Source: Candidatus Auribacterota bacterium (GTDB lineage: Bacteria > Auribacterota > Tritonobacteria > UBA1439). Taken from it: a stretch of 64,000 nt of DNA. The notes under the pieces are model-generated. The model was not told the DNA's origin and did no database searches. It saw nothing but the letters and a program-made list of their open reading frames with translations. A program made the translations under genes and the position numbers. The stretch is from positions 1 to 64,000 of the forward strand of contig JAPLCW010000174.1 in NCBI GenBank assembly GCA_026392015.1. The letters are read 5' to 3'. Of this stretch, positions 1,296 to 25,882 are shown in pieces (position 1 is the first letter of the stretch; the number at the start of each line of letters is the position of its first letter).

Positions 1296-1676
1296 ATGGC
1301 AAAAAAGATTCTTGTTGTTGATGATGAGCCGAACATTATGGATGTTGCAACAGTCAGATTGAAGCGCCTGGGGTATGAAATCATATCTGCCTTTGATGCC
1401 GAGAAGGCGCTGACTTTTCTGCAAAATGTTACTCCCGATTTAATATTACTGGATCTGCTCTTACCCCAAATGCAGGGGGATGAACTTTGTAAAAAGCTGA
1501 AATCTGATGACAAATTCAAACATATCCCCATTATCATATTTACCGCCAGTGCCATCCGCACCAGCCTTCCTGAAAAGATAAAAGAAATGGGCGCAGATGA
1601 TTGCATAATGAAACCATTTGACCCGGAAGAATTATTAGGAAAGGTGACGGGAAAGGTGAATAAATTTATACGATAG
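1296..1676 (+). CDS. Single-domain response regulator (CheY-like receiver)
   Basis: Acidic pocket VVDDE and phospho-acceptor D in LILLDLLLP; T and K motifs (IIIFTAS, MKPF). RBS AGGAGG lies upstream. It is 70% similar to the regulator at 6506-6868. Confidence 0.85.
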   Translation: MAKKILVVDDEPNIMDVATVRLKRLGYEIISAFDAEKALTFLQNVTPDLILLDLLLPQMQGDELCKKLKSDDKFKHIPIIIFTASAIRTSLPEKIKEMGADDCIMKPFDPEELLGKVTGKVNKFIR

Positions 1677-1738
1677 CGGATCCAAGATAATAATTTTGAT
1701 GAACATCAGAAGCACATTGGACAACAGGGAACAACTGT

Positions 1739-3085
1739 ATGTGCTCAAAGAAGATTTTCTTTTATCCCGCTGTGGCTTTTGCGGTTTTGCTGGTATTCGC
1801 ATTTGCCCTATCTCTTGTTGAGAAATCTCCTGCTTTCCCTGCACACCACCCCACCATCAAAGTCGGAATACTCCATTCCCTCACCGGCACAATGGCCATC
1901 AGTGAGAAATCGGTAGCGGATGCCACTTTGCTCGCGCTGGAAGAGATCAACAAAACAGGCGGTGTGCTGGGAATGAAGATAGAACCTGTGATCGCCGATG
2001 GGAAATCAGACCCGGATGTCTTTCAAAAAGAGGCCGAGCGGCTTATTGCTAAAGAGAACGTGAAGGTCATTTTCGGATGCTGGACATCGGCCAGCCGCAA
2101 GGCGGTCAAAGCCATCGTTGAGAAATACAATTCTCTCCTATTCTATCCAGTCCAATATGAAGGGTTGGAACAGTCCCCGAATATCGTATATATGGGAGCG
2201 GCGCCCAACCAGCAGATCATTCCCGCGGTTAAATGGTCCTGCGATAATTTGGGCAAAAGCTTTTTCCTGGTCGGATCGGATTATGTATTTCCCAGGGTGG
2301 CCAATGAAATAGCGAAGGATATCATTGGCCTTGTGGGGGGCAAGGTTGTCGGGGAGGAATACGTCCCGCTGGGCGGCAAGGATTTTAACGGCATCGCGAG
2401 GAAGATAAAGGAAACAAAACCCGAAGTCATTTTGAACACCATTAACGGCGACAGCAATATCGCTTTCCTGATGGCATTGCATGAGGCGGAAGTCCCGTCC
2501 GCGAAAGCGCAGATCATGTCGCTCAGCATGGCTGAAAATGAATTACAGAGCTTTAAGGATTATTTTCAGAAACATTATCCGCAGGAGGCGGGTCATTTTA
2601 TTGAAAAGCACCTCGCCGGAATGTACGCCTGCTGGAACTATTTTGAAACGATCGACAACCCCTTGAATCTGGATTTTATCGCGAAATTCAGGCAACAGTA
2701 CGGCAAAAACTATAAGGTGACCGATCCCATGGAGGCCGCCTATTTTGGGGTGTATCTATGGAGCAAGGCCGTCAATGAGTGCAAAGACGTTGATAATCCT
2801 GAAAATATCCTGAATTATCTGGGCGATATAAGCATTCCGGCCCCCGAAGGCATTATCACCATTGCGGATAATAATCATGCGCGGAAAACCGTCCGCATCG
2901 GCCGGCTCAATGAGAGAGGGGACTTTGATATTATCTGGAGTTCAAAGAACCCCGTGGATCCGGTTCCATATCCTTCTTTCAGGGACAAAACCTCCTGGGA
3001 ACATTTTCTTAATGAACTTTATCAAAAATGGAACGGCCACTGGAGCAGTATCGCGGAGCCATTTGATTCCGGAGGGAGCCGATGA
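1739..3085 (+). CDS. Periplasmic substrate-binding protein, type-1 PBP fold (UrtA/AmiC/Liv family)
   Basis: Signal peptide, then IKVGILHSLTGTMAISE (UrtA-like motif) and the GCWTSASRKAV region. Its stop overlaps the downstream kinase start (ATGA). Confidence 0.75.
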   Translation: MCSKKIFFYPAVAFAVLLVFAFALSLVEKSPAFPAHHPTIKVGILHSLTGTMAISEKSVADATLLALEEINKTGGVLGMKIEPVIADGKSDPDVFQKEAERLIAKENVKVIFGCWTSASRKAVKAIVEKYNSLLFYPVQYEGLEQSPNIVYMGAAPNQQIIPAVKWSCDNLGKSFFLVGSDYVFPRVANEIAKDIIGLVGGKVVGEEYVPLGGKDFNGIARKIKETKPEVILNTINGDSNIAFLMALHEAEVPSAKAQIMSLSMAENELQSFKDYFQKHYPQEAGHFIEKHLAGMYACWNYFETIDNPLNLDFIAKFRQQYGKNYKVTDPMEAAYFGVYLWSKAVNECKDVDNPENILNYLGDISIPAPEGIITIADNNHARKTVRIGRLNERGDFDIIWSSKNPVDPVPYPSFRDKTSWEHFLNELYQKWNGHWSSIAEPFDSGGSR

Positions 3086-6000
3086 AACCCCCGGGAAAAT
3101 CAAAACTCTCCAGAAGAATATTCGTATATTTCTTTATCGTCTCGGCGCTGCCCTTGTTATTCATGGCCATTGCCAGCTATCATGTCTTCTCCCGGTCACT
3201 GGAGGAGCACATTCGCAACAAGCTGATCGCTATCAGTGACGGCCGGCAGGCGGCTCTTAAACAAACCATATACGGCATATCAAGGTTTATCACTGAAAGG
3301 GCCTCGGGCCCCACGCCCGTCACGGGATTTGAAAAATTTACCGCGGCATTTGCATCATCCGGGATTCAAAGTGAAGAACATAAAGCCCTTGATTCACATT
3401 ATAGGGAAGCGTTCCAGAGATATTTTGACGTAAACGATTATATCTACGACATGCTTTTTGTTTCAAATGAGGGAAATGTCATATTTTCGATGAAGCATGA
3501 AAGCGATTTCGGACAAAACATCAACAGCCCTCTTTTGAAAACCACGGCACTTTTCGGACTCGTGAACACCGTGAATACCGTGTTAAGCACCTCCTTTTCT
3601 GATTTTGACTTTTACCCACCGTCCCATCAAGCCGCTCTATTCGCCGCCACTCCTGCCTTTGGGGAAGGCAAATTGCTCGGTGTGATGGTACTTCAGATCA
3701 AGCCTGAAATATTTTATGCATTCGCGCAAAATTACGTCGGGTTGCCTAAAAGCGGAGAAATCACTTTCGCAAAACGCGTCGGAGATGAAGTTGTATATAC
3801 CACACCACTTCGCTTTAAACCCGATGCCGCGCTCAACTACAAGATCAAGATCGGCTCTCACATCGCCGTTCCCATGCAGAAAGCTGTCAGCGGAGAAACA
3901 GGTATCGGGTTTTCAACGGATTACCGGGGGAAAAGCGTTCTCGCCAGATGGCAATATATCCCGCAGTTGCACTGGGGCATGATCGTTAAGGTAGATACAG
4001 ATGAGGTATTCCGATCAATTCATCAGTTAAGAAATTTATATATAATTCTTTTTTGCATTCTGATAGGCCTTATTTTAATGGCCTCTTTTGTGGTCGCCCG
4101 CACTATCTGCGGTCCCATCGAAACGGTCCGCGACGGCCTGAAGATAATCGGAGGCGGCAACCTTGGCCATAGAATCAATATTGCGCGCAATGACGAGATC
4201 GGGGAGCTGGCGGAGGACGTGGGTGCGATGGCGGAAAATTTGCAGCACACGACCGCTTCCATAGATAAACTCAACAAAGAAATCACCCAGCGCAAGAAAG
4301 TCGAGGAGGCGCTTCAAGAAAGCGAGCGCACGGTTCGGGCGATCCTTGACCAGACGTTCCAGTTCATCGGACTGATGACCGTTGACGGAGTCCTAATAGA
4401 CGCAAACAAGGCGGCATTAAAATTTGCCGGGATCGAGGAATCACAGGTTTTGAACAAGCCTTTTTGGGAAACGCCCTGGTGGACACACTCAGCGGAATTG
4501 CAGAATAAACTGCGCGACGCCGTCAAGAAAGTGGCACGGGGGGAATTTATACGTTTTGAGGCGACACACATGTTGAAAGGCGGCGGCCTTCATTATGTCG
4601 ATTTTTCACTTAAACCGGTCAAGGATGACGCAGGCACCGTCATCTTTATGATCCCGGAAGGCCGCGATATTACCGACCGCAAAAAAGTGGAAGAGAGGCT
4701 GCGCAGCAGCGAGGCGTGGCTTTCCGTCACTCTCAAGAGCATCGGCGACGCGGTTATCGCCACCGATACAAAAGGCCGTATCACGTTTGTTAATCCTGTC
4801 GCCTCGCGGTTGACCGGCTGGAGTCAGGAAGAAGCGACGGGCATGCCGCTCAAAGAGGTCTTTCACATTGTCAACGAAGAGACAGGCGCGCCCGTTGAAA
4901 ATCCGGCGACCCGGGTACTGAAAGAAGGCGTGGTTGTCGGGCTTGGGAACCATACGATATTGTTAGCCAAGAACGGAACAAGGTGCCCGATCGATGACAG
5001 CGCCGCGCCTATCATGGATGACGGACAGATCATCGGAGTGGTCTTGATTTTCCGCGATATCACTGAGCGCAGGAGGGCGGAAGAAAAGATCGCGCGCGCG
5101 AACAGGGAATGGGCGAATACGTTCGATTCCATATCGGATTTTGTCTTCATCCTAAATAACGACAGCACCATTGCAAAAGTGAACAGGTCTTTTCTCGACG
5201 TCCTCCATCTGGAAGAAAAGGATGTCGTGGGCAAGAAGTGCTACGAAATTGTTCACAAGACAACAACGCCATGGCCGGAATGTCCACATCAAAAAACACT
5301 GCTCAATAGAAAGCCGCAGACGGAAGAGGTGGACGACCCGGGAGTGGGCCTGCCGCTTCAAGTCAGCGTTTCGCCGATCTTCGACGAGCAAGGCGAATTG
5401 TTAGGCTCGGTCCATATCGCCAGGGATATCAGCAGCACGAGAAAAGCGGACGCGGCACTGAGGGAATCCGAAGAGAAATACCGCAGTCTTGTGGAAAACA
5501 TGATGGACGTAATATACGCCATGGACGCCGAGGGGAAAGTGACGGCCATCAACCAGGCGGTAAAGACTAACTACGGCTACGAACCGGAGGAGGTTCTCGG
5601 CAGGAATTTTTTGGAGTTCCACAAAAAGGAAGTTTATGCCCCGGTAGTGGAAAATTTCCACCATATACTTAAGGGAGAAAAGGTTCTCGGCGAGGCCATT
5701 ATTATTGATAAACAGGGGCTGGAACATAACGTTGAATTCTCCGGGGTGCCAATAGTAAGAGATGGAATAGTCGCCGGCGTGAGAGGTATGATGAGAGATG
5801 TCACCGAACGCAAGAAGATATTGGAGCAGAAAAACAATTTTATGAATATGGTATCTCATGAGCTGAGAACGCCTTTAACTTCCATTAAGGAGGGTATTTC
5901 TCTCGTCGCGGAAGGCATCGCGGGACCTATCAACCCGCAACAAAAAGAGTTGTTGGATATCGGGAAACAAAACATCGACAGGCTCTCGCGATTGATAAAC

Positions 6001-6531
6001 CAAGTTCTGGATTTTCAGGCAATCGACTCTGGCAGTATGCAATTCAGCTTCAGGGAAAATGACATAAATCGTGCGGTCAAGGAAGCCCGCGCATCTCTGC
6101 TGTCGCTCGCAACGAAAAAAGGAATACAGCTCAATCTCGCGCTTGATGAGAGCCTGCCCCTCATTAAATTTGATAAGGATAAAATCCTGGGGGTATTGAT
6201 CAATCTGCTCAACAATGCCCTGAAATTCACGGAAAAAGGAAGCATCACGATCACTACCGAACGCGGAGACAATATCATTAAAGTCTCCATTAAAGACACC
6301 GGTATCGGAATCAAAGAAGAGGACATGCCCAAGCTGTTCCAGCGTTTTTCTCAGGTAAAAAGAAAAGCCGGCGGGTCGGGATTAGGGCTCGCCATTTCCA
6401 AAGAGATCATAGAGGCCCACAACGGCAAGATAGGGGCGAAATCGGAGTTCGGCAAGGGAACGACGCTTCATTTTATCCTGCCGATCAAAGAGAGAAGGCT
6501 GCACTATGAAGAAAACAATCCTGATAGTTGA
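3082..6531 (+). CDS. Multi-sensor histidine kinase: TM, periplasmic sensor (~270 aa), TM, HAMP, coiled coil, 4 PAS domains, HisKA, HATPase_c
   Basis: Two hydrophobic segments flank a periplasmic domain. HAMP (GELAEDVGAMAENL). Four PAS-like blocks. The third PAS carries KCYEIVHKTTTPWPECPHQ. H-box MVSHELRTPL and HATPase G1/G2 boxes. Confidence 0.9.
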   Translation: MKPPGKSKLSRRIFVYFFIVSALPLLFMAIASYHVFSRSLEEHIRNKLIAISDGRQAALKQTIYGISRFITERASGPTPVTGFEKFTAAFASSGIQSEEHKALDSHYREAFQRYFDVNDYIYDMLFVSNEGNVIFSMKHESDFGQNINSPLLKTTALFGLVNTVNTVLSTSFSDFDFYPPSHQAALFAATPAFGEGKLLGVMVLQIKPEIFYAFAQNYVGLPKSGEITFAKRVGDEVVYTTPLRFKPDAALNYKIKIGSHIAVPMQKAVSGETGIGFSTDYRGKSVLARWQYIPQLHWGMIVKVDTDEVFRSIHQLRNLYIILFCILIGLILMASFVVARTICGPIETVRDGLKIIGGGNLGHRINIARNDEIGELAEDVGAMAENLQHTTASIDKLNKEITQRKKVEEALQESERTVRAILDQTFQFIGLMTVDGVLIDANKAALKFAGIEESQVLNKPFWETPWWTHSAELQNKLRDAVKKVARGEFIRFEATHMLKGGGLHYVDFSLKPVKDDAGTVIFMIPEGRDITDRKKVEERLRSSEAWLSVTLKSIGDAVIATDTKGRITFVNPVASRLTGWSQEEATGMPLKEVFHIVNEETGAPVENPATRVLKEGVVVGLGNHTILLAKNGTRCPIDDSAAPIMDDGQIIGVVLIFRDITERRRAEEKIARANREWANTFDSISDFVFILNNDSTIAKVNRSFLDVLHLEEKDVVGKKCYEIVHKTTTPWPECPHQKTLLNRKPQTEEVDDPGVGLPLQVSVSPIFDEQGELLGSVHIARDISSTRKADAALRESEEKYRSLVENMMDVIYAMDAEGKVTAINQAVKTNYGYEPEEVLGRNFLEFHKKEVYAPVVENFHHILKGEKVLGEAIIIDKQGLEHNVEFSGVPIVRDGIVAGVRGMMRDVTERKKILEQKNNFMNMVSHELRTPLTSIKEGISLVAEGIAGPINPQQKELLDIGKQNIDRLSRLINQVLDFQAIDSGSMQFSFRENDINRAVKEARASLLSLATKKGIQLNLALDESLPLIKFDKDKILGVLINLLNNALKFTEKGSITITTERGDNIIKVSIKDTGIGIKEEDMPKLFQRFSQVKRKAGGSGLGLAISKEIIEAHNGKIGAKSEFGKGTTLHFILPIKERRLHYEENNPDS

Positions 6532-6868
6532 TGATGAGCGTGATGTGCTCTCCGTTCTGAAACTGAGATTGCAGAGTTCGGGCTATAGGATTTTAGTCGC
6601 GGAGAGTGCCGAAGAGGCGCTTGACATACTCAAGAAAAATACCCCGGACCTGATATTTATGGATCTGCTCTTGCCCAAAATGCAAGGAGTGGAAGTGTGC
6701 AAAAGGTTAAAATCGGACGACAAATTTCGGCACATACCCATTATTCTCTTTACCGCAAGCACTATGGACGTCGCGGAAAAGGTCAAGGAAGCACATGCGG
6801 ATGACTATCTGCTGAAACCTTTTGAACCGGAAGCCCTGTTATCCAAGATCAGGAAGTTTATAGGTTGA
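6506..6868 (+). CDS. Single-domain response regulator (CheY-like), paralog of 1296-1676
   Basis: REC motifs (IVDDE, FMDLLLP, ILFTAS, LLKPF). It overlaps the kinase 3' end by 26 nt. Confidence 0.85.
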   Translation: MKKTILIVDDERDVLSVLKLRLQSSGYRILVAESAEEALDILKKNTPDLIFMDLLLPKMQGVEVCKRLKSDDKFRHIPIILFTASTMDVAEKVKEAHADDYLLKPFEPEALLSKIRKFIG

Positions 6869-7276
6869 TTCATCAACCGGAACAGAAATCATACACGCTT
6901 TGCCCCCGATCGCCGGTGACCTGAACGCGCCGCCGGGCGGGAAGAAGCATTCGGGAAAGGAGAAATATAAATTGTGACAGACCGGCTCGATATGCATGGA
7001 AAGTCGGGCAGGGCAGGGAACATCTGTCTTTGTGCACCTGCGGAAAGAAAGAAAAATAAGGATAAGGCAAGGCCTCGGTCTCAGGGAGGCATGTCACTCC
7101 CGCCCCTGTATAACTGAGAATGTGCGAAAAAATAAGATTCCTGAACTTGGTTATTTGCATATCTATTGTGGGGGCTTGATTTATCAAGCCCTTTAGGGAG
7201 GGTCGGATGAATCCGACCCCTACAGCAATGCGCAAAACTATTTTTTTTCCACACCTTCTGAGGGGATACAGGATAA

Positions 7277-7537
7277 GTGAACAGAGCCAATAAACGCTGG
7301 CAGGTCTACATCATCCAATGCAAGGACGGGACTCTCTACACCGGCGTCACCAATAATCTCGCGCATCGCATCGATGCCCACAATTGTGGCAAGGGCTGCC
7401 GCTACACGAAATGCAGGCGGCCCGTGAAGCTGCTCCATGCCGCATCGTTCCCCGATAAATCAGCGGCTATGCGGCGCGAAGCAGAGATCAAGAAATGGAG
7501 CAGGAGAGAAAAGGAGGAGTTTCTGGGGAAGAAGTAA
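7277..7537 (+). CDS. Small GIY-YIG nuclease-superfamily protein
   Basis: WQVYIIQCKDGTLYTGVTNNLAHRIDAHN matches the GIY-YIG motif. Second copy of this family, again next to a kinase / response-regulator pair. Confidence 0.6.
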   Translation: MNRANKRWQVYIIQCKDGTLYTGVTNNLAHRIDAHNCGKGCRYTKCRRPVKLLHAASFPDKSAAMRREAEIKKWSRREKEEFLGKK

Positions 7538-7987
7538 CAATGTTTTTCTCCGGAGTTAACGCTGTCCCATTACCCCTAATCCCTAACTACTGACTACTAA
7601 CTACTGTTTCCCAGCTGAGACTTTAGTCGAAACTTGTAGCCGAGACTTTAGTCTCGGAGGAGACAGGCGGAATCCCTTATCGCATATTCATCACTGCTAT
7701 TGCCTATCGCTTCTCCCAGGCGAAGCTTCGCCAGTACACTGTTAAAGTAGTTTTTGCTGATATAAATGCCGTAAGCATTATGTCATTGCGAGGATCCCGC
7801 CGAGGCGGGAGACGAAGCAATCTTTTTTTATCTTTTAGCAACGAGATTGCTGCGCCCTTTGGGCTCGCAATGACAGGTTACCTCGTAAGAATTAACTTAA
7901 CAGTGTACTAGCTACTGCAGTACGATTTTCCCGCTCGCCTGAGAAACGCGTCTTCGCGGCCTTTGATCAACTTGCTTCGTAACTGCT

Positions 7988-8125
7988 CTTGAGCCAGAAT
8001 TCAGAAGACAGAATACAGAATTCAGGAGACAGGAGATAAACGTTTCCTTGAAATGCCGCTATTCTTAATTCTGGATTCTGTATTCTGTCTTTTCCATTCT
8101 GGCTCCTGACTTCTGACTACCTGAG
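7988..8125. repeat. MITE-like palindromic element, copy A
   Basis: Arms are made of degenerate CAGAATN / CAGGAGN heptamers around a core AGGAGATAAACGTTTCCTTGAAATG. The same element occurs inverted at ~34216-34372 and ~40478-40650. Confidence 0.8.
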
Positions 8126-8241
8126 TAGTTACCTTGCTTCTATTGAAAGCCCGGGATACTCGGGTGAAAAAGCTATTGCGTGAGGTGATGCTTCTGCTAC
8201 AATGAAACCGCATGAAAGAAGCGGGCAGGAGGGCATGAATA

Positions 8242-9393
8242 ATGAACTACAGGGATATTCTGGATCTAGCCTGTGCCGGTATCGGGGCGGTTGCTTTTAT
8301 TCTTCTCCTCGTGAAGCGCAGCGTGAAGGTTATCGAGCGCCGCGTCGCTCTGACTCTCCTCTCCATTCTCCTCACCACGCTTGCCTACCTTCTCTACAGC
8401 GGTTACCAGTACCGGGTCTCCCCTGATTTGCTGGCGTCGCTCATGATCATCGAACTTGGGGTTTTCGCCCGAATCTACGATTCGTACAGAACCTTCCGTA
8501 GCCTCTCGGGAACGCTGCGGAATCTCGGCAATATCTATATCTTTGCGGGCGTCGTCTGCCTGCTCTCACGGAGCACAGGTTTCTCCCCGCTCCTCTGGGC
8601 GCTCCCTGTAATCCTCTTCTCGCTCGGCTATTTCTTCATGAAGAAGAGAAGGGGACTCGGAAACCTCTGCAAGGGCCTGGGAGTGCTCATATCCGTCGCC
8701 TTTGTCGCCTCAATCCTCTACGACGCGCGCGCCGGGGCAATACCCGGGCAAGGCGCAGCGCTTCTCCGGGGACACCTGCTTCCAGACATTATGAATCCTT
8801 CCTTCGTTGAGGAGCTCAACGCACTTAACAAGAAATTATCCGTCGCAGACGCTGAAAAGGCGCGCCTCTCCGAGAAACTCATCCTAACGAAAAAGGAATC
8901 CGAGAAGCTGACACAAGAGAAGAATGCGATTGAGGGGAAACTCGCGGAGATGGGCAAGGCGCGCGCGAATGAATCCTCTGAGCGGGAGACGCTCAAGACC
9001 GAGAAACAGAAGCTCCAGGAGCTCCTCAATAAAGAGACGGCAGCCAGGAACGATGCCAAGCATAAACTCGAGGAAGCAAAGGTGGCGGGCAAAGAAGGCT
9101 TCACCGCGATTGAAGAGAAACTGAAGCTCGCGGCTGACAACCTCAAGAAGGTGATGGAAGAGAAAACAGCCCTCACCGCGGAACTTCAGTCCCTCAGGGC
9201 CGCCTCACCGATGGCAACGCCCGGCTCTCAATCTGTAGATGTGCAAGAGATGAAGAAGAGACTCGCGGACAGGGAAGGAGAGCTTGCCGCCGTCACCCTG
9301 GAGAGAGATAGATTAAAGAAGATTGTCGGAAAGATCGAAGACGCACTGCCGACCGGGATGCCCTCGCCACAAGTGCCGGGGGCGGGGAACTGA
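8242..9393 (+). CDS. Membrane-anchored protein with long C-terminal coiled coil (hypothetical)
   Basis: 4-5 N-terminal hydrophobic helices, then K/E-rich heptad-like sequence (LSEKLILTKKESEKLTQEKNAIEGKLAEMGK...). No recognised catalytic motif. Confidence 0.5.
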   Translation: MNYRDILDLACAGIGAVAFILLLVKRSVKVIERRVALTLLSILLTTLAYLLYSGYQYRVSPDLLASLMIIELGVFARIYDSYRTFRSLSGTLRNLGNIYIFAGVVCLLSRSTGFSPLLWALPVILFSLGYFFMKKRRGLGNLCKGLGVLISVAFVASILYDARAGAIPGQGAALLRGHLLPDIMNPSFVEELNALNKKLSVADAEKARLSEKLILTKKESEKLTQEKNAIEGKLAEMGKARANESSERETLKTEKQKLQELLNKETAARNDAKHKLEEAKVAGKEGFTAIEEKLKLAADNLKKVMEEKTALTAELQSLRAASPMATPGSQSVDVQEMKKRLADREGELAAVTLERDRLKKIVGKIEDALPTGMPSPQVPGAGN

Positions 9394-9433
9394 GCATCTT
9401 CCGGACAGCGGATCCACTACTGATGAGGATCTT

Positions 9434-10315
9434 ATGACAGGAGCACCGAGGATCGGGATAATCGGCGGGAGCGGGCTCTACCAGATGGCGGAGATAGGGG
9501 GTCTGCGCGAGGAGCGCGTCGAGACTCCATTCGGCTCGCCCTCTGATCGCTATACCCTTGGGACATTGGCCGGACGGGAGGTTGTTTTCCTCCCCCGACA
9601 CGGCCCAGGACACCGCCTCATGCCGACGGATATCAACTACCGCGCGAATATTTTCGGGATGAAGAAGCTCGGCGTGGGCTGGATTATCGCGGTGAGCGCC
9701 GTGGGGAGCCTCCAGGAGCGTTACAGGCCGCTCGACATCGTCATCGTGGATCAGTTTTTCGATAGAACAAGCAAGAGACACTCAACCTTTTTCGAAGAGG
9801 GGCTCGTGGCGCACATCGCGTTCGCCGATCCCATCTGCGGGGCGCTCGCGCGCATCCTCTACGACGCCGGGAAGGAGATTGGCGCTCCCCTGCACATGGG
9901 AGGCACGTACGTAAATATGGAAGGTCCCGCCTTTTCGACAAAAGCGGAGGCTGCGGTATATCGCGCCATGGGGCTCGACCTCATCGGCATGACCAATCTC
10001 ACCGAGGCGAAACTCGCGCGTGAGGCGGAGATCTGCTATGCGACGATCGCGATGGTCACCGACTACGACTGCTGGCATCCCGAGCATGAGGCGGTAACTG
10101 TGGAGACCGTAGTCCGCAACCTCCGGAAGAACGCTGCGACTGCCACACAGTTGATCCTGAAGGCGATCAAGAAAGTGCCCCATCGGCAAAACTGCCCCTG
10201 CGCCAGCGCCCTTGCGGCAGCAATTATCACACAGCGCGACACGATACCGCCTGAAATCGTACTGAAGCTCCAGCCTCTCGTGGGGAAGTATTTGATGCCC
10301 GGGCAAAAAGCCTGA
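9434..10315 (+). CDS. mtnP: S-methyl-5'-thioadenosine phosphorylase (PNP family 2)
   Basis: RIGIIGGSGLY, FLPRHGPGH and INYRANIF motifs, then the CWHPEHEAVTVE region typical of MTAP. ATG at 9434 chosen by homology (the ORF-track start at 9323 adds a non-homologous leader). Confidence 0.85.
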   Translation: MTGAPRIGIIGGSGLYQMAEIGGLREERVETPFGSPSDRYTLGTLAGREVVFLPRHGPGHRLMPTDINYRANIFGMKKLGVGWIIAVSAVGSLQERYRPLDIVIVDQFFDRTSKRHSTFFEEGLVAHIAFADPICGALARILYDAGKEIGAPLHMGGTYVNMEGPAFSTKAEAAVYRAMGLDLIGMTNLTEAKLAREAEICYATIAMVTDYDCWHPEHEAVTVETVVRNLRKNAATATQLILKAIKKVPHRQNCPCASALAAAIITQRDTIPPEIVLKLQPLVGKYLMPGQKA

Positions 10316-10366
10316 AATCTGATGGGATAAAAGCCGTTTTCCGGTTTACTGCGAAAAAGGGCTTTC

Positions 10367-11002
10367 CTACTTGCCGAAGGAACTGATGCTGGTACCGGCG
10401 CTCCCGCTCGTGCTCGGGGATGAGGATGCGGTCGTGGGCGCAGAAGCGCTTGTGCCTTCGGAGCCGGCCCCCTGAGACGACGATGTTCCTCCTCGTGAAC
10501 CTTCCTTAGTCTTGCTGCGTTCATCAGACCGTTTGCGCCGTTCTTCCACGCCGCCCTTCTTTGCTATCTTTCCCGCGGCCTTGCCGCGAGCAGTGCCCGG
10601 GCGCGCGCCTCCCGGTCCCTTGGCGGCCTTGGGGCCCGGAGCGCTACCGCTGTAATAGACAGGCTCAAATGCCCGCCCGGGGTTTTGCACCCCCCCACCC
10701 TGGAAGAGCTTCCGGTTTTCCACATCAGAAGATTTGCTTATCGATTGAATGGCCCCGCGGCTCAGGAAGGTGGTGACGACCTTCCCCTTGTGGGGCATCC
10801 TGACCTTGACAAGGTTCTGCATCTCCTTGATTACCTTGCACGTGATGGTTCCTCCGTTCTTCAGCGTGATTGTGTCTGAGGAGGCACTGAGAATGAAGGC
10901 GAGGAGGACGGAGATTATGCATAGCGGGATAAAAGCCAGCCATGTGCGCCGCGCATGAATCGTCATGCCTCGATATAAAAGGGACAGTCTCATAAATCTC
11001 AT
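10367..11002 (-). CDS. Hypothetical secreted / membrane-anchored protein with low-complexity G/S/T/A-rich C-terminus
   Basis: Hydrophobic N-terminal segment (WLAFIPLCIISVLLAFIL), then a low-complexity tail. Weak call. Confidence 0.3.
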   Translation of the reverse strand: MRFMRLSLLYRGMTIHARRTWLAFIPLCIISVLLAFILSASSDTITLKNGGTITCKVIKEMQNLVKVRMPHKGKVVTTFLSRGAIQSISKSSDVENRKLFQGGGVQNPGRAFEPVYYSGSAPGPKAAKGPGGARPGTARGKAAGKIAKKGGVEERRKRSDERSKTKEGSRGGTSSSQGAGSEGTSASAPTTASSSPSTSGSAGTSISSFGK

Positions 11003-11770
11003 TTAATAATTGCAGTCACTGAGAATACCGGATCACAGTTTTATTCCTGTAGAACCGATTCCCCAAATGACCTCAAATATAATACTAGTATACTACATAT
11101 ATCCGGCATTTCCCATGTAAAGATCGGTCTCTGTGTAATGGGTCACTTATGGATACCCCCCAAGACTGACCCATTACGCTTAAAGATATGGCGGGCAGCC
11201 TATCTCCCCGGAAGGCAATTGAGCTTTTTCGCAGCATTAAGCTTGTTGAAGTATGGTTCGATACTATTGATGGACGGCGGATTTGTCTTCCGCGGATCAC
11301 GATGCCCGAACCTGACCATCAAGTAGTTCTGGAGCAGTTCAAATGGAATTTGCCCGAACAACCACCTCCGCGCATTTATACACGGAGGGAAGGTCATGTA
11401 AGAAATGTGTGGGAGATTCGAAGTTAAAATGCCCTCCTTTCCTATGAAAGCTGGGCTTCTATGCAAAATCTGCGAAAGTCGGGTTAGGATTGAACACGCA
11501 AGGTGAAGTCTTGCGAGTCGAAGTCCCTCCCCCATCCCCGCTCCCATCACTCCTATTGGATAGTGAACTTCGCTCTCACGTCGAGGAACGCATCCGCCCG
11601 CCCTGTAATCGGCTTCAAGGGGTCGAAGAACGCGAACGCCGCGACGACCTCGTACTACCCGACGGGCTTCACGTTCGGCCGGAGAGCGAGGGCGTCGAGC
11701 ATGAACCCGTCCGGGAGGATAACGACCGGCTCCGCGAGGGGCAGCATGGGGCAAATTGCCCAAGTTACGA

Positions 11771-12333
11771 CTAATCGCCCCCTCGAACGGCCCGCACTAA
11801 ATGAACATCGGTCTTATGGCCGAGGTACGTCACCCAGCCGTAGTCGAAAAGCGCCAGAAAAGCGTCGCCGCCAGTGGCAGGGGGGGGAGTCGTAGTAGAG
11901 CACCAATAGCCGCCCGCGCCCGAGACCGTGTCTGGGAAGTACGTTTTGTTGATGTAAGGGAGCCCCTGACCTGCATCGCACACAAACAACGTACTCAGCT
12001 CGTTTACGTTCGGCAAGCGCCAGTCGGTAGAACCGGCGAAGTTCAGCCCCTCCGCCCAGACAATCGCACTCGACCATACGAGTTGACCTCCGGTGTTGCA
12101 ACCGGCGCCCGTTCCGCTCTTCGGCCAGATAAGACCGGTCACCATGTCGACCACGGTGTCACCGTTGTCATAGTAACTGAATGCCTTTCCCTTAGTGGAC
12201 GAGTAACTGCCGTCATCTCCCGTCTGGTACACCGCCGTCTGGCCGGTCTTGAGGACGGCATTGGCGGCAATGGCCATACCGGCCACACCGACCGCGCATA
12301 TCAAACCCAAAACTGCCATCATCAACTTTTTCA
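11771..12333 (-). CDS. Secreted DUF1566 (Lcl C-terminal domain) protein
   Basis: Signal peptide MKKLMMAVLGL...AIA, then KTGQTAVYQTGDDG...DWRLPNVNEL...VRAVRGGD. Start placed at the MKK ATG with an AGGA RBS. Confidence 0.65.
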
Positions 12334-12394
12334 TCTTTTCAACCATCCTTTCATGTTTCACCGCTAAAATTACGTCAAATTGCCCAAGTTACGA

Positions 12395-13234
12395 CTAATC
12401 GCCCCCTCGAACGGCCCGCACATAATAGCTACGGGTCTTTTCGATGCTGCCCACGAAGCCGAGGTAGAAGTTCGGGCTCAAAGCGTACGTCGTACGGTTC
12501 GGCTCCGTAGTAGAGGACCAATAACCGCTCGTTGTCGTGTCTGGGAAGTACGTCTTGTTGATGCGAGGGGCCCCCCCATCGAGCACAAGCAACGTCTGCA
12601 GCTCAGTTTTGTTCGGCAAGCGCCAGTCGGTAGAACCGGCGAAGTTCAGCCCCTCCGCCCAGACAATCGCACTCGACCATACGAGTTGACCATTTGAATT
12701 GCATCCTGCGCCAGTTCCACTCGAGGGCCATATCAAACCTGTGACGTTGTCCATCACCGTATCCGTGCTGGAATCCCAGGCATAACTAAATGCCTTACCC
12801 TTGCTGGTAGAGTAAGTGCCGTCATCTCCCGTCTGGTACACCGCCGTCTGGCCGGTCTTAAAAACAGTATTATAAGGAGCCGCAAAAGTGCCTGTCTGAA
12901 CTCCCCATCTTCCTGACTGCGTGCTGAAGAACTTCGTGCCACTCGCTACTTTGTCGGCAGTCGCGTCGCACAGGTCAAACTTCGTTTTGACATCATCGCC
13001 AATCTGTTTCGCGCTCTTCATGGTACCGACCGTTGGCCCTGATGCGGGTCCCTGAAAACTGGTCTGCACTGTGAGCGCTGTGCCGCTAGTGAGATAATCG
13101 TACAGGTTTTGGAGCGTGTACATCCCGCTCCCCTCCGAAGGCGCTCCCGGAGAGTCAAGGCTCCCCGCAACGGCTATCCCGGCCATCGCGCCCGCGAACA
13201 TTAGACTTAAAACTGCTATCGTCAACTTTTTCAT
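12395..13234 (-). CDS. Secreted DUF1566 protein, tandem paralog with an extra ~90-aa N-terminal region
   Basis: Signal peptide MKKLTIAVLSL, then the same KTGQTAVYQTGDDG...DWRLPNKTEL...VRAVRGGD core. The last 9 codons plus 19 nt of 3' UTR are identical to 11771-12333. Confidence 0.65.
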   Translation of the reverse strand: MKKLTIAVLSLMFAGAMAGIAVAGSLDSPGAPSEGSGMYTLQNLYDYLTSGTALTVQTSFQGPASGPTVGTMKSAKQIGDDVKTKFDLCDATADKVASGTKFFSTQSGRWGVQTGTFAAPYNTVFKTGQTAVYQTGDDGTYSTSKGKAFSYAWDSSTDTVMDNVTGLIWPSSGTGAGCNSNGQLVWSSAIVWAEGLNFAGSTDWRLPNKTELQTLLVLDGGAPRINKTYFPDTTTSGYWSSTTEPNRTTYALSPNFYLGFVGSIEKTRSYYVRAVRGGD

Positions 13235-13446
13235 CTGTCCAACCATCCTTTCATTTTTTGCTTCCCCATTCCATGCTGCCGAAGTGGTATATCACTCTAT
13301 CGGGAATCATACTATCACCCATGGGGGGGATGTCCAACCAAATTAAATGTCCCCTTGATCACTCCCTCTCCCCCCATTCATGAGGCTGTCTCAAAACTCG
13401 TTACAAAACGATGGCAATAGCACTCTTGTCCAAAATAGCGTTTTTG

Positions 13447-14818
13447 GACAGCATCCCACATCATGCGATGTTTAACCATGATGCCAAAATGCAGTAGAAA
13501 AGCCAATTTGGGGGCATTTCCCCAGCTTTTGATCTCTGGAACCGAACCGGTAGTATCTTGGACAGCATTTTGAGGCCTCAAAATGAATCATGCAGAGATT
13601 TGTCTTAAACGGCCTATTTCTCTCACAATACGCGCATGACAATCACCAAACTAATTTATTTTGGACAGATGTGTGGCAATAGGATAAAATAAAGCCGGAG
13701 GCGAGCCAAAGGAGAGAGATATGAGATATGCGCAGATTACCAGCAGATGTACCTATTGCCACCTGCGTTGGAGAATTTTGTACCGCGAGATCATCCAGCG
13801 ATGTTGCTACGGGAGTTTGTGGATTCTCTGGACTTACTTGGATTGGGTTTTAAGGCCCGGGAAGCAGAGGAGGGACGTCCATATTATGGAGAAAGTTTAT
13901 TGCTGAAGGTATGGTTATATGGATACTTCAACGGGATACGAAGTAGTCGGAAACTTGAAAAAGAGAACAAGGAGAATATAGGGCTTATCTGGTTAACGGG
14001 GATGCATTATCCAGATCATAACACACTGTGGCGGTTTTACCAGAGGAACCAGAAGGCGCTCAAGAGTCTGTTTAAAGAAGCGGTACAAATAGCAGTGAAG
14101 GGTGGGTTAGTAAGGATGGTAGTCAACGCGGTAGACGGGACAAAGATCATGGCAGATGTGTCACAGAGGAGCGGGATACATCGAAAGAAGTTGGAAGAGA
14201 TATTACGGAGGATAGACGAGTCAGTGGATGAAGTATGTAGCGAGATAGAGAGAGCGGAAGAAGATGAAGCCGGAGAGGAATATGGGTTGCCTCTGGAGCT
14301 TCAGGAGAGGAAGAAGCTCCGGGCATTCATTGAGGGAGAACTAAAGGAGCTAAAAGAGAGAGGGACATCTAATCTGAGCAAGACGGACAAGGATGCTCGA
14401 ATGATGAAGGGGAATGAGTGGATACGGGCTATCTGGGGGACTCCCGCAAAATATGTTGCAGTATCAATGCGGAATGCTCCTGTCCATACCTGCCCATGGC
14501 TCGATGCCTCAAACGCCAGCAGCATCGCGCCAAACATTTTACTCAACATACCACAATAACCGCTTTTTTTCATATCGCGCATTCTCCCCATGTGCCATTA
14601 CAGTGTCTGAAAATATGACAGCTCGTGTTCAGCCGCGTCCGTTCCCGCCTCTGCGGAATGTTCTCCTATTTAATCATGAGCGTCTCCCCGGCGATCGAGC
14701 CCATCACTTTCCCCTTGTTGTCCTGGAGAGCATTTTCTCATGGGGCTTGACCGATTAGCCTCGCTTCAACCCTCACAGATAAATAGACTAGCAAAAACCG
14801 TACCAAACAGTATGGATC
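13447..14818. mobile_element. Degraded IS5/IS1182-family insertion sequence (putative)
   Basis: TTTTGGACAG motif at 13447 and 13657, and its reverse complement CTGTCCAAAA at 14809, bracket a truncated transposase ORF. Boundaries are uncertain. Confidence 0.35.
13747..14559 (+). pseudogene. IS5/IS1182-family transposase, C-terminally truncated
   Basis: N-terminal InsH/DUF772-like region (LLLKVWLYGYFNGIRSSRKLEKE). It reads through DKDARMMKGNE and then leaves the family frame. No DDE catalytic region is present. Confidence 0.6.
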
Positions 14819-15038
14819 TGTCCAAAAAAGGATAATATCTTCTATCATCTGTCATGCAATAGGTTATGAAAGAGAATAATGCCCGGGTAGTTCTAGGCCC
14901 TAGGGATAAGAAATGGAAACTGTTCAATTTCTGAACACTGGTGTTCGATAATTGAACAGTTCCGCAGGTTATATCGGAATGGACTGTGGTAAATGAAAAT
15001 TCAGTATTGTTGGATGGTAAATTTGGCTAAACCTATGA

Positions 15039-16154
15039 TCAACGCCGAGAGAGGAGCATTCTCAGGAGCACGGAAGGGCGAAGGAGGAGCAGGGTGCGCG
15101 TGTTACACTCGTGCGTACAGACGCAGCGCTTCTCACGGCGCAACGCGACGAATTCCCTCGCCCGGGCGCCGGCCAGCAGTTTTTTAAGGTCAAACCCGAA
15201 ATCGCGGACATTCCCGAGAGAGCGATTGAACATCAGCTCGCACGGGAACACTTCTCCATCCTCGGAGAGGACTACCTCACGCTCCCCGGCCAGGCAGGGG
15301 GCGATGAACTTCCCCTCCCTCCAGACACGGGCGATGTAGCGAGTGCGGGCTTTGTTCATCCTGTCGCGCACGCGGCGCTTCAGGGCACGGGCGGAGTGGA
15401 GGGCCCTCTCGCCCTTCCCGCGATAGAGCGTGTCCAGTTTTTCGCAGAGCGCCGTGTAGATCTCCGGCGTCACATCAGGGGGCCGCGCCGCGGGGCCGCC
15501 GCCTCGCCAGAGGTTGAGTGTGTGCGAATCGGGATGAATCTCCTTGAACACAAAGTCGATGAGCCGGTCCAGTTCCCCCTGGTTCTCGCGCATGAGCGTT
15601 GTGATGACACCCACGTACAGATTCCCATACCTGCGCTGAAGATCCTGAGCGCCTGCGAGCGTGCGCAGCGCCCGCGCGTGGATGCCCGAGACGCCGCGGA
15701 GGCTGTCGTGGAGCTCGCCGAAGCCGTCCAGTGAGACCGAGAGACTGCACGAGAGATTTGGCGAGATCGCGCAGATGCGCTCTACCGCGCCGAGGATCTC
15801 CTCCGTCCTCAGACCGTTCGTCGGAATGGAGATATTACCGAACGATGTCTCCCTGAAATAGGCCTCCACGACCTCCGGCAGATCCCTCCGCAAGAACGGC
15901 TCACCGCCGCTCAGGAGGAGAAAAGGGAGCTTGCCGATGGAATGGGCGATCTTACGGATTTCATCCAGGGTGAGCTCGCGGGTGCGCCTGTTTACCGTAT
16001 AGAAGCAATGAGCGCAGCGCGCATCGCACGCAGCGGTGACAAAGTGCGTGAGCTGGAAGAGACCGCGGCCCGGAAGAAACGCCTTTCCAATCATGCCGAT
16101 GGCTCCCGTGAGCGGGTTAACAGACTTAAAATCCTTTTTCACATCCCTCCTCAC
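15039..16154 (-). CDS. Radical SAM protein with C-terminal Cys-rich (SPASM/twitch-like) region
   Basis: CDARCAHC (CxxxCxxC) cluster near the N-terminus, and a GGEPFL SAM-binding motif. C-terminal cysteines (PCLAGE, FPCELM, CVCTHEC). Confidence 0.75.
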   Translation of the reverse strand: MRRDVKKDFKSVNPLTGAIGMIGKAFLPGRGLFQLTHFVTAACDARCAHCFYTVNRRTRELTLDEIRKIAHSIGKLPFLLLSGGEPFLRRDLPEVVEAYFRETSFGNISIPTNGLRTEEILGAVERICAISPNLSCSLSVSLDGFGELHDSLRGVSGIHARALRTLAGAQDLQRRYGNLYVGVITTLMRENQGELDRLIDFVFKEIHPDSHTLNLWRGGGPAARPPDVTPEIYTALCEKLDTLYRGKGERALHSARALKRRVRDRMNKARTRYIARVWREGKFIAPCLAGEREVVLSEDGEVFPCELMFNRSLGNVRDFGFDLKKLLAGARAREFVALRREKRCVCTHECNTRTLLLLRPSVLLRMLLSRR

Positions 16155-16803
16155 CTCCCCCTTCGCGGGGGGAGGGAATTATATTTATTTTGCCACACAA
16201 AATGCAGGAGAAGCATTAACCTGATCTATTCACCAGCTTTTAATGTTTTAACCGCGGATTAAGCGGATTACGCTGATTTGCATTGTTTAATCCGCCCAAT
16301 CCGCGAAATCTGCGGTTTCATATGTTTGGCCGTTAAAATTGCTCTTTTATTCGTCTGCTGAATAATCCAGGCTAAGCTGCTCTATTCATCAACCCGAGAT
16401 TAGCATTATCCGAATATTCGCAACATATTGCATTGCAGGGGATTGATCCTTCGGCAAGCTCAGGACAAGTTTTATCAAGCCCGTTCTCAACCCGGGTTCG
16501 ATAAATCAAACCCCTACATTACGCAGATGAATAGTCCAAGCTAAACCTTATCCCCATCCTTCCTCGCCAAAGACGAGCGAGCGTGAGGCTTGTCCGCCTT
16601 GGGCGGAGGAAGGGTCAAGGCGGGGTGTTTGTTGCGAAGTATGCCATTCTTGCACTTCGACTACGCTCAGTGCAAATTCGAGCAGAAATCCAGATTCCAT
16701 ACAGGATCCCCGCCTGCCTGCGCGAAGCCGCTTCGGCATAGGCAGGCTTCCTCGGGGATGACAATTGAACTGAACACCACCACAAGACTGACGTATTACT
16801 ACA

Positions 16804-17676
16804 CTATTTTTTCCCATAGCCGACACAACTTCGCCCTTTGAGTATCCCGGCCGTGCGGCAGATCTCGCCCACAGCTATGAGTGGTAACAAAACTATAAAC
16901 TGAACGAACCGCCGGGTAAACAGATATCGCCTGAAGAGAACTAAGAGGCGCGGCATGAAGAAGAGGAGGACCGGGTGACGCAGGAGCACACTCCCCCGCA
17001 GGGTAAATCGGGTGCGCGCGTAGACGAAGGCAAGCCCGCAGCGATATTGGTTCCGGAAAAAAGAAACGAGTCCCCGGCGCGCAGGAGCATGTGTCACGAT
17101 GATCGCGGGGTCGAAGATGAGGGTTCCGCCGCGCGCGGCGATCTCCGCATTGAATGTGGTGTCTTCCCCCGCTGTCGTCGGGATGAAATCAATCCCACGA
17201 ATGGCCTCCCGCCTGTACGCAACATTCAATGTCGGGATTGTTGAGACGGGTCCCGGCCTGGCCGATGGAATGAATTCCGAAAAGTTGGACAGGTACTCGA
17301 GTCTCCCGGAAATTCCGTTCGATCCGTCGAGGATGGCGCCCCCGACGCCGGCGGCGTCAGGATTGCGCGTGAACACCTGCTGGATTTTTTCCAGCCAATC
17401 ATCATAAGGTATCGCGTCCGCGTCGGTGAATGCGATGATATCCCCCTGGGCGCGCGCTTTTCCCACATTTCGCGCTTCTCCCGCGGAGAGAGGCATGGCG
17501 GAAGCGACGACCTTGACCGGGAAGCGCGCAGCGACTTCTCGCGAGCCATCCTCGGAGGCCCCATCCACCACGATGACGTCAAGCGGTTTCACCGTCTGCC
17601 GTCCGATCGCCTCGAGGCACGCCCCAATCGTCCCCGCCGCATTCCGGCAGGGGATCACAACACTGACGGTGTTCAT
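16804..17676 (-). CDS. Family 2 glycosyltransferase (GT-A fold)
   Basis: VSVVIPCRNAAGTIGACLEAI, DVIVVDGASEDGS and FTDADAIP (DxD) motifs. Start trimmed to MNTVSV; the ORF-track N-terminus (YRIQNTE)n is only translation of the heptamer tract. Confidence 0.75.
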   Translation of the reverse strand: MNTVSVVIPCRNAAGTIGACLEAIGRQTVKPLDVIVVDGASEDGSREVAARFPVKVVASAMPLSAGEARNVGKARAQGDIIAFTDADAIPYDDWLEKIQQVFTRNPDAAGVGGAILDGSNGISGRLEYLSNFSEFIPSARPGPVSTIPTLNVAYRREAIRGIDFIPTTAGEDTTFNAEIAARGGTLIFDPAIIVTHAPARRGLVSFFRNQYRCGLAFVYARTRFTLRGSVLLRHPVLLFFMPRLLVLFRRYLFTRRFVQFIVLLPLIAVGEICRTAGILKGRSCVGYGKK

Positions 17677-17723: not shown

Positions 17724-17857
17724 TATTCTGTATTCTGTATTCTGTATTCTGTATTCTGTATTCTGTATTCTGTATTCTGTATTCTGTATTCTGTATTCTG
17801 TATTCTGTATTCTGTATTCTGTATTCTGTATTCTGTATTCTGTATTCTGTATTCTGT
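17724..17857. repeat. Perfect heptanucleotide tandem tract (TATTCTG)n, ~19 copies
   Basis: Read directly in the sequence. It lies in the intergenic region between the divergent GT2 (minus) and GT39-like (plus) genes. Confidence 0.9.
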
Positions 17858-17870
17858 ATACGCCCTGCCA

Positions 17871-19560: not shown

Positions 19561-19696
19561 TGTAGGGGCTTGATCCTTCGGCAAGGTCCCTTCGACTGAG
19601 TTTATACTGAGTGTAGCCGAAGTGCTCAGGGTCTTCGACAGGACAAGTTTTATCAAGCCCGTTTTTAACGCGGGTTCGATGAATCGAACCCCTACA
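19561..19696. repeat. Palindromic element family TGTAGGGG...CCCCTACA (representative copy)
   Basis: TGTAGGGGCTTGATCC...GGACAAGTTTTATCAAGCCC...GGGTTCGATGAATCGAACCCCTACA. Other copies at ~7166-7226, 16435-16519, 30238-30311 and 30714-30793, and a fragment inside the CDS at ~18985-19095. Confidence 0.8.
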
Positions 19697-20124
19697 ATAG
19701 GGAGATGAATAAAAGAGCTATTTTAACAGCCCACCATATGTAACCGCAGATTACGCGCCTGCCTGCCGGCAGGGATTGGGCGGATTACACAATGCGAATC
19801 CGCGTAATCCGCGGTTAGAACATTAGGTTCATGTCCAAAAAAGTTGCCCATTCATACGAGGAGAGTAGTCATCCCCGCGAAAGCGGGGATCCAGAAATGC
19901 AGCTTTCTAAGCTGGATTCCTGCTTCGCATAATAGAGGGATTACGCGAGGTGATGTCAGCGGGGTGCCGGTGCAAAAAAGTATAAAATCATACAATCGCA
20001 TATTTCCAGTTGACTTCCGGAAGCGGATAGCGTATCTTGAGCGGGTTTGCTGGGCATATATCTGCCGAGTCAACTCGTTCAGGCGCCGGCGCGTTGTTAC
20101 GGTGCCAGCGAAAGGGGAGACATT

Positions 20125-23107: not shown

Positions 23108-23460
23108 CCACTGGGGACACTGAAGCAACATCAATAGATTCAAGGTGGCTATATTTTTTAGATTCCCTTGCATTTTGTGTGCGTGCACTGCATTCTCCTC
23201 CCCCCTTGAGGGGGAGGAAGAAGGTGGGGGGTATTGCAAAGGCAGATATGCTACCCATTACATTGGATGGAGTTACAATGAGTATCCGTTATCCATTCCT
23301 CACCCCCACCCTTACCCTCCCCCTTCGGAGGGGGGGGATAAGAAATTTGCCCACACAAAGTGGAAGAGAACCCTTTTTAAATCAGCGTAATCCGCGGTTC
23401 GAACCGTTATCGTAACGAAGTTAGTCTCTGTTTCAGTGCGCTCAGTGTCCTCAGTGGTTA
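23108..23460. repeat. MITE-like element with terminal inverted repeats, inside the BMC operon
   Basis: AACCACTGGGGACACTGAAGC at the left end and its reverse complement GCGCTCAGTGTCCTCAGTGGTTA at the right end. The interior holds GC-rich UUCG-loop hairpins and a CCGCGGATT motif. Confidence 0.6.
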
Positions 23461-24880: not shown

Positions 24881-24953
24881 GGATTACAGCGCGTAACTGC
24901 GGATTGGATGGACTACCGTAAAGAATCCGCCTAATCCGCGCAATCCGCGGTTA
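24881..24953. repeat. Palindromic element family TTAACCGCGGATTACGC (representative copy)
   Basis: Units of GGATTN3GCG with inverted symmetry and ends like TTAACCGCGGATT / AATCCGCGGTTAA. Further copies at ~16250-16320, 19741-19818, 23385-23412, 25828-25860, 40425-40455, 41685-41730, 41975-42009 and 63855-63985. Confidence 0.8.
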
Positions 24954-24978
24954 AAACATTAAAGGTGTCTGAACAGTC

Positions 24979-25737: not shown

Positions 25738-25826
25738 CATGCAACCACGGATGAACACGGATGAACACCGAACAGCAGAAGGAGCATTTGAACCGTGTTA
25801 ATCCGTGTTCATCCGTGGTTCAAAAT
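25738..25826. repeat. Palindromic element family CACGGATGAACAC / GTGTTCATCCGTG (representative copy)
   Basis: AACCACGGATGAACACGGATGAACAC...GTGTTAATCCGTGTTCATCCGTGGTT. Related copies at ~30470-30500, 30607-30640, 51127-51150, 53990-54140 and 60150-60220. Confidence 0.75.
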
Positions 25827-25882
25827 TTTTCAATCCGCGCAATCCGCGGTTAAGACTTTAATATTTCGTCTTTTATCCAATT

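Follow-up and report, generated by a model that had tools for sequence, protein, structure and literature searches.

Introduction

MITEs are non-autonomous, cut-down DNA transposons that are moved by a transposase supplied in trans. Bacterial MITEs derived from IS elements (e.g., MITEPsy1 of Pseudomonas syringae, PMC3189936; Correia/NEMIS; MITEAba12) are 100–300 nt long, possess terminal inverted repeats, generate a target-site duplication of fixed length, lack a transposase gene, and occur in multiple, mostly intergenic copies that can fold into hairpins. The family described here resembles them in all these respects and differs in its inverted repeats, which are unusually long (45–75 nt) and consist of tandem heptamers that vary in number.

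Three other kinds of repeat invite comparison. REP/REPIN sequences are abundant intergenic palindromes that form long hairpins, as our repeats do, and the region studied here even carries a RAYT-like gene. However, single-strand transposition by Y1/HUH enzymes (IS200/IS605, RAYTs) leaves no target-site duplication; REPINs accordingly have none, whereas our copies carry one of 8 bp. The cyanobacterial STRRs are tandem heptamers, located in intergenic regions and often arranged as inverted arrays able to form hairpins. They share with our repeats the tandem intergenic heptamers and differ in sequence and phylum, and to our knowledge no description of them includes inverted repeats at their edges or flanking target duplications. 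Simple-sequence contingency loci resemble only one array of the region, (TATTCTG)19, a long and perfect tandem repeat of a non-triplet unit that lies between two divergent glycosyltransferase genes. This array differs from such loci in sharing its unit with a transposon arm.

Here we analyzed a 64,000-nt stretch of DNA, hereafter called the window, from Candidatus Aureabacteria (Auribacterota), a phylum known only from metagenomes. One GT2 protein encoded in the window is 100% identical to a GenBank protein from a Candidatus Aureabacteria MAG, and contigs identical to this strain are present in SRR20698648. In the literature, we found no paper describing mobile elements in Auribacterota. The defined inverted-repeat ends, the 8-bp target-site duplications and the presence of copies at unrelated loci lead us to conclude, with a probability of roughly 90%, that the repeats are a newly described MITE family that has spread through Candidatus Aureabacteria genomes.

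Three copies in the window

The initial annotation had reported a MITE-like palindromic element at 7988–8125, 34216–34372 and 40478–40650. The three loci were correct, but the edges were a few bases too narrow, as judged from the conserved ends and the target-site duplications. Copy 1 occupies 7979–8132 (+ strand, 154 nt), with its A end GTAACTGCTCTTG at 7979 and its B end ...CCTGAGTAGTTAC at 8132. Copy 2 occupies 34205–34385 (− strand, 181 nt), and copy 3 occupies 40463–40658 (− strand, 196 nt), between the genes for PMT_2 (stop 40428) and DUF6263 (start 40679). Copies 2 and 3 run in the opposite orientation to copy 1, and all three belong to the variant designated subfamily II below. Pairwise identity or complementarity is 87–89% over 121–128 nt. 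An nhmmer profile built from these copies scored them at E = 1e-49 to 1e-61 and detected no fourth copy in the 64,000 nt.

The core that had been noticed in all three copies, GATAAACGTTTCCTTG, is indeed exact in 3/3, at 8035–8050 (+), 34294–34309 (−) and 40566–40581 (−). When up to three mismatches were allowed, four matches were obtained, compared with 0.39 expected by chance; these were the exact copies and a three-mismatch site at 36726. The invariant centre exceeds this core and extends over about 53 nt in all three copies (TTAAGAATAaCGgCATTTCAAGGAAACGTTTATCTCCTGTCTCCTGAATTCTG). Alignment also upheld the description of the arms as degenerate heptamers, with NNCAGRA on one side and its complement TYCTGNN on the other. 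What separates the window copies in the alignment is mainly indels of 7, 14 or 21 nt.

Ends and target-site duplications

Imperfect terminal inverted repeats, GTAACTGCTCAGG at the A end and GTAACTACTCAGG at the B end, are present on both ends of every copy. Immediately outside them, copy 1 is flanked by CTTGCTTC at 7971–7978 and again at 8133–8140, and copy 3 by AAATCTTA at 40455–40462 and 40659–40666, with 8/8 bases matching in both cases. The flanks of copy 2 are degenerate (TATATCTG / GACATCGC, 4/8 matching).

A search for target-site duplications had been proposed with the initial annotation, and it was positive. The insertion set comprised ten independent insertions from the window and related metagenome contigs (relatives' loci are given L numbers), with copy 2 and the L006 copy counted as one event. 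At least seven of the eight flank bases matched in 8/10 insertions: all eight in window copies 1 and 3, L012, L027 and L028b (n = 5), and seven in L025, L028a and L031 (n = 3). The two insertions with degenerate flanks are the old one shared by copy 2 and L006 and the one in L015, whose flanks match at 2/8 on a contig that is only 618 nt long and may be chimeric. In offset controls, the mean number of matching flank bases was 2.26, and seven or more matched in 0.06%. Seven clearly different 8-mers were duplicated, and they show no obvious consensus. The 8-bp duplications bear the signature of a DDE-type transposase that makes cuts staggered by 8 bp, by either a cut-and-paste or a copy-in route.

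Copy 3 interrupts a conserved PMT_2–DUF6263 gene pair. The spacer between the orthologous genes in L007 (PMT_2, 53% identity; DUF6263, 46%) is 22 nt, versus 250 nt in the window. L007 represents a more distant relative, too diverged for base-level alignment of an empty site. Among close relatives, the search yielded no empty site that could be aligned, and in the one represented by L005/L006 an element is present at the site of copy 2.

The family in relatives and its two subfamilies

The family was traced in relatives via an ORF that gene callers had placed on the element. The family is present in multiple copies at unrelated loci: in addition to the three copies in the window, copies were found at no fewer than seven distinct loci in relatives. 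Their neighbours include rpmB, ruvX/peptidase M16, methyltransferase and PfkB genes; one further copy separates a gene for an LptD_N-domain protein from an ABC_tran gene, and another precedes a gene for a B12-binding radical SAM protein. The copy at L028 11107–11292 was detected solely by flank scanning. As far as seen, the family is confined to Candidatus Aureabacteria. Scans of genome and metagenome collections with an exact 20-mer of the core gave one chance match each, in coding DNA with no heptamers nearby, and these two were the only matches of the subfamily II core in other genome and metagenome records; a scan of viral contigs with a 27-mer of the A end gave no match. The search for copies was extended beyond the window edge by one 4.5-kb Logan contig.

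Copies in relatives mostly belong to subfamily I, the commoner form there, which is 186–215 nt long, with about 110 nt forming a unique centre. A subfamily I profile matched window copy 2 over its full length (E = 1e-14), and the window core aligned with the middle of the long subfamily I centre (GTTTCC..AATGC.GTTA.TC). These alignments show that subfamilies I and II are homologous. Subfamily II is the derived form: it retains 38 nt of the subfamily I centre (the ‘core’), most of which has given way to heptamer-type sequence. In L031, a variant carries extra arm heptamers in place of one quarter of the ORF. Arm indels of 7 and 14 nt distinguish copies in alignments of both subfamilies.

Two further observations concern insertion sites and assemblies. 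At L028 4614–4799 (= L029 4580–4765), the MITE lies 3 nt before the start codon of a PfkB gene; the start codon recurs in the duplication C[T/C]ATGATG, and 2 nt lie between the end of the upstream gene and the left repeat, so that a tightly coupled gene pair is now 194 nt apart. The short-read contigs L003 and L004, from the same or related strains, end inside the element.

History of the three copies

The relative represented by L005/L006 encodes a GT4 protein 90% identical to that of the window and carries a same-ended, same-armed element at the orthologous site upstream of the GT4 gene, but with a subfamily I centre. Because copy 2 and the L006 copy have common flanks and share a derived terminal variant, CTGC-GAGGAG in place of CTGCTCAGGAG, they represent one ancestral, old insertion. 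Even so, copy 2 has an interior identical to those of copies 1 and 3 and unlike that of L006. The simplest reading is that this interior was acquired from another subfamily II copy by gene conversion. Copies 1 and 3, which look like recent transpositions, carry the canonical sequence at their termini and are flanked by perfect duplications; they are therefore younger than copy 2 and not derived from it.

Copies 2 and 3 bracket the GT4/PMT_2 block, as had been pointed out initially, but they are independent insertions, and the link to the block is incidental. The idea that copies 2 and 3 bound a composite transposon was considered and rejected: a perfect duplication surrounds copy 3 by itself, no more than 2/8 bases agree (by eye) between the outer flanks, and L007 contains a similar GT4/PMT_2/DUF6263 cluster, albeit with a gene order that is not the same. 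In L004, a 90% relative, a 7-kb insert (1301–8377) that is absent from the window separates the first and second GT4 genes. It encodes an 81-aa ORF, a 350-aa ORF and a 1679-aa DUF4011/AAA_11/AAA_12/MTES_1575/DUF3320 helicase.

Copy 1 lies at the edge of a rearrangement. In L017/L020, the gene order is PMT_2(−), GT2, RadicalSAM, 383-aa protein and PNP_UDP_1 on one strand; in the corresponding part of the window (8242–17676), the 383aa–PNP–211aa block is inverted relative to RadicalSAM–GT2, with Lcl_C genes and an IS1182 remnant between them. Since the duplication around copy 1 is intact, the inversion was not mediated by this copy.

An ORF on subfamily I copies

In the L005/L006 copy, the centre of about 110 nt has been annotated by gene callers as a 47-aa protein. 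A peptide search showed that this ORF of 42–47 aa on subfamily I has been called as a gene in 47 clusters at 90% identity. A small mobile gene cassette for such a protein, of which the window copies would be decayed versions, seemed worth considering, given these calls and the arm-derived AGGAG motif 5 nt before the ORF's ATG. However, among seven subfamily I copies, substitutions were distributed equally over codon positions 1, 2 and 3 (15/15/15), and the amino-acid replacements were often radical. The N-terminal extensions of the ORF clusters (VTAQEPEFRSQEPGV) are the translated inverted repeat and arm, a Pfam scan gave no match, the window copies contain no such ORF, and in L031 heptamers substitute for one quarter of it. 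A gene cassette is thus hardly credible. The even substitutions, the radical replacements, the lack of a Pfam match and L031-type variants show instead that the ORF is spurious, a by-product of young and similar DNA copies.

Public databases hold at least 47 clusters (P0121–P0167) of 32–82-aa ‘hypothetical proteins’ that are translations of the MITE. Some of them start inside the inverted repeat (VTAQEPEFRSQEPGV...), a systematic annotation artefact.

Candidate transposases

No partner transposase with matching ends was found in the window or, by the scan with the A-end 27-mer, in viral contigs. Three candidates were examined there and rejected, because they have other ends or another chemistry. 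The first is a truncated IS1182 transposase at 13747–14559, of which the N-terminal half with DUF772 remains (NCBIfam 159 bits versus a cutoff of 270). This decayed IS adjoins duplicated Lcl_C-domain genes at 11771–13246. Another is the RAYT-like Y1 (IS200-like) protein of 231 aa at 57162–57857 (− strand; NCBIfam NF047646, 76.1 bits versus a cutoff of 80). The 5.5 kb around its gene is bracketed by 135-nt direct repeats (54252–54386 and 59726–59860, 92% identical), and the protein may drive some other palindromic repeat families in the window. The remaining candidate is a probable, unclassified IS of 2.8 kb at 51186–54004, whose 34-nt inverted repeats are unlike the MITE ends. It encodes a 215-aa HTH protein (53058–53705, −) and a 607-aa protein (51230–53053, −) with only sub-threshold matches to MULE/Mutator and IS256; it may represent an unclassified or very divergent transposase family.

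The ends themselves recall the IS66 family. Both begin with GTAAC, and integration duplicates 8 bp. IS66 members have inverted repeats of 20–30 bp starting GTAAGCG and 8-bp direct repeats (PMC11946415), other members have an inverted repeat starting GTAACCGTCC (PMC12888890), and ISPpa5a and ISPpa7 also generate 8-bp repeats (PMC3281130). The likeness thus lies in ends beginning with GTAA and in an 8-bp direct repeat on insertion (PMC11946415, PMC12888890, PMC3281130). The difference is that agreement with the IS66 consensus is limited to the first 4–5 bases, beyond which the MITE repeat GTAACTGCTCAGG is unlike GTAAGCG...; in addition, the 8-bp duplication is not exclusive to IS66, since IS6 and IS21 members also have 8 bp. 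Neither the window nor about 340 kb of related loci yielded an IS66 transposase (TnpC) or an accessory gene, and the IS66 Pfam domain was absent from the gene tables of the fetched relatives' loci and from the window ORFs scanned. From the GTAA start and the 8-bp duplication, a derivation from IS66 is tentatively proposed, at a little under even odds. We know of no description of heptamer subterminal repeats as a feature of IS66.

An integron attC-like reading of the GTAAC/GTTAC ends was also considered and discarded on inspection, as they do not fit RYYYAAC/GTTRRRY.

Hairpins and gene neighbourhood

The arms pair over 45–75 nt, the inverted repeat continuing inward as NNCAGRA heptamers. In subfamily II, the palindrome reaches nearly to the middle because the centre was replaced by heptamer-type sequence. 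Single-strand folding gave z scores of −9.7 for copy 3, −6.6 for copy 1 and −4.3 for one subfamily I copy. The Rfam search gave no match to the MITE copies, and a known RNA family was accordingly set aside; the sole match in the window was a cobalamin riboswitch (RF00174, 82.8 bits) at 59495–59684 (−), elsewhere in the window and near CbiM/NikR-type genes.

The core contains an 8-bp palindrome, AAACGTTT, and the initial annotation had suggested that the core might be a protein-binding site. This suggestion found no support: the palindrome is private to the window subfamily and is absent at the aligned position of the subfamily I centre, so there is no reason to see a conserved protein site in it. 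No promoter- or terminator-like site was found inside any window copy. A conserved promoter-like site for the GT4 gene is located at 34406–34434, outside copy 2, which lies upstream.

Copy 1 had also been associated with a GIY-YIG gene. It lies 442 nt past this gene with other repeats in between, and elsewhere in the family no copy neighbours a GIY-YIG gene, which makes the association incidental. We infer that the element has no function for the host, except that it introduces a stable hairpin into intergenic DNA or transcripts.

The (TATTCTG)19 array

A perfect microsatellite, (TATTCTG)19.4, occupies 17724–17859 in the divergent spacer between the GT2 (−) and PMT_2 (+) genes. It lies 48 nt upstream of the GT2 start (the true ATG is at 17676, reading MNTVSVVIPCRN) and is likewise upstream of PMT_2. 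No promoter or terminator consensus was found at the array. The unit coincides exactly with CAGAATA, the inner heptamer of the arms, which is found specifically in the window subfamily. In nhmmer, the MITE profile matched nothing but the heptamers of the array.

The array had been interpreted initially as an expanded arm of the element. The shared unit stands, but several observations speak against the derivation. The array edges bear no inverted repeat, core or duplication. The GT2/PMT_2 spacer is short in relatives (59 nt in L017 and 116 nt in L020), with no TATTCTG tract in the aligned stretches that cover it, and heptamer arrays of other units also occur in the window. These observations agree with an independent microsatellite that is not a piece of the MITE and possibly acts on the divergent GT2/PMT_2 promoters as a phase-variable contingency tract. 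We consider this a real possibility, though one with somewhat less than an even chance, because the MITE arms do change by whole heptamers and because the identity of the units is unlikely to be a coincidence (<1% by our estimate, from ~8 arm variants among ~1,200 heptamer classes). Given that improbable coincidence, an origin of the array from a MITE arm is plausible, and it is the reading toward which we lean.

Discussion

The terminal inverted repeats, the 8-bp duplications and the many copies at unrelated loci in related genomes bear out the MITE-like nature first suspected from the palindromes. With 154–215 nt and no functional transposase gene, the elements also have the size and content of MITEs. 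The element encodes no protein, and a DDE-type transposase supplied in trans would mobilize it, each integration proceeding through staggered cuts 8 bp apart to yield the 8-bp duplication. The heptamer tracts lengthen and shorten in 7-nt steps, presumably by replication slippage. In the case of copy 2, the interior of an old insertion was later swapped for subfamily II sequence, with gene conversion as the simplest route.

Two alternatives to a MITE deserve weighing at this level. The repeats could be a host cis-regulatory module for envelope glycosylation genes, consisting of a protein-binding core together with a heptamer operator array or an RNA hairpin. Copies 2 and 3 lie just upstream of the GT4 and DUF6263 genes, the TATTCTG array lies between the GT2 and PMT_2 genes, and the core does contain the 8-bp palindrome AAACGTTT. 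Yet the family members in relatives have unrelated neighbour genes, the target-site duplications show arrival by insertion, and the commoner subfamily is missing the palindrome. The copies also contain no promoter- or terminator-like site, the GT4 site lies outside copy 2 and Rfam gave no match; we thus regard a regulatory module as very improbable. Even less probable are REP/REPIN-type palindromes mobilized by the RAYT-like Y1/HUH transposase at 57162–57857. A RAYT-like gene is present (NF047646, 76.1 bits, below the cutoff of 80), the genome is full of intergenic palindromic repeats, and the element is a long, REPIN-like hairpin. This model is rejected because Y1 enzymes leave no duplication, whereas the MITE copies carry 8 bp at 8/10 insertions; moreover, the seven different duplicated 8-mers speak against a sequence-specific target motif, and the RAYT-like gene has no copy beside it (no profile match near 57162–57857).

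A MITE family of this kind is an ordinary sort of selfish DNA with unusually repetitive, slippage-prone arms, and it leaves the current understanding of transposons unchanged. It adds a well-defined mobile element, with known ends, target-site duplications and two subfamilies, to Candidatus Aureabacteria. Its practical effects are broken short-read assemblies (L003, L004), dozens of spurious ‘hypothetical protein’ calls of 42–80 aa in public databases, and insertions in operons that land a few bases from start codons; strains could be told apart by whether they carry the element. The length-variable heptamer inverted repeats represent microsatellite dynamics within a transposon, and the unit shared with the perfect 19-copy array between glycosyltransferase genes makes a link between the MITE and a contingency locus testable. 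A bolder idea is that the arms are a self-expanding microsatellite that seeds contingency arrays such as (TATTCTG)19, which would act as a phase-variable switch of surface glycans. Slippage would lengthen the inverted repeats and overwrite the centre, leading from subfamily I through L031-type intermediates to subfamily II. We judge this unlikely; if true, it would mean a MITE family that generates contingency loci in an uncultured phylum.

Other repeats in the window

The window contains several other repeat families. A second intergenic family has inverted arms of tandem 9-mers, GCGGATTAn / nTAATCCGC, often ending AACCGCGGATT...AATCCGCGGTT. It is found at 16237–16326, 19797–19826, 23380–23409, 24924–24962, 25831–25861, 41684–41725 with 41976–42015, and 63842–63992, with a fragment at 40428–40452. 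Its design, a palindrome with tandem-repeat arms, is like that of the MITE, and its sequence is unrelated. A third family consists of hairpins with tandem 10-mer arms, CACGGATGAA / TTCATCCGTG, at 25746–25820, 30618–30645, 51129–51145, 54006–54144 and 60188–60215; the 10-mer motif also occurs beside the MITE in L015.

A repeated module of about 73 nt, with the hairpin GGGTTCGATAAATCGAACCC followed by CTACA, is located at 7180–7224, 16461–16533, 19639–19711 and 30284–30311. One of its copies lies directly 5′ of the 86-aa GIY-YIG gene (7277–7537). Hairpins of about 65–70 nt at gene ends (47528–47592 and 61190–61262) have stems of tandem heptamers, AGCTGTA.. / ..GCTTATG and AGTTGTA.. / ..GCTTATA, respectively. 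A palindromic element of about 175 nt with arms of AGTAGTT/AGTAGCT heptamers occupies 49745–49925, with further occurrences at 7580–7606 and 47677–47703. This heptamer resembles the B-end terminus of the MITE, AGTAGTTAC, and the inner edge of the element at 49745–49925, GGATAACGTTCCCTTG, resembles the MITE core GATAAACGTTTCCTTG at 14 of 16 positions with one gap.
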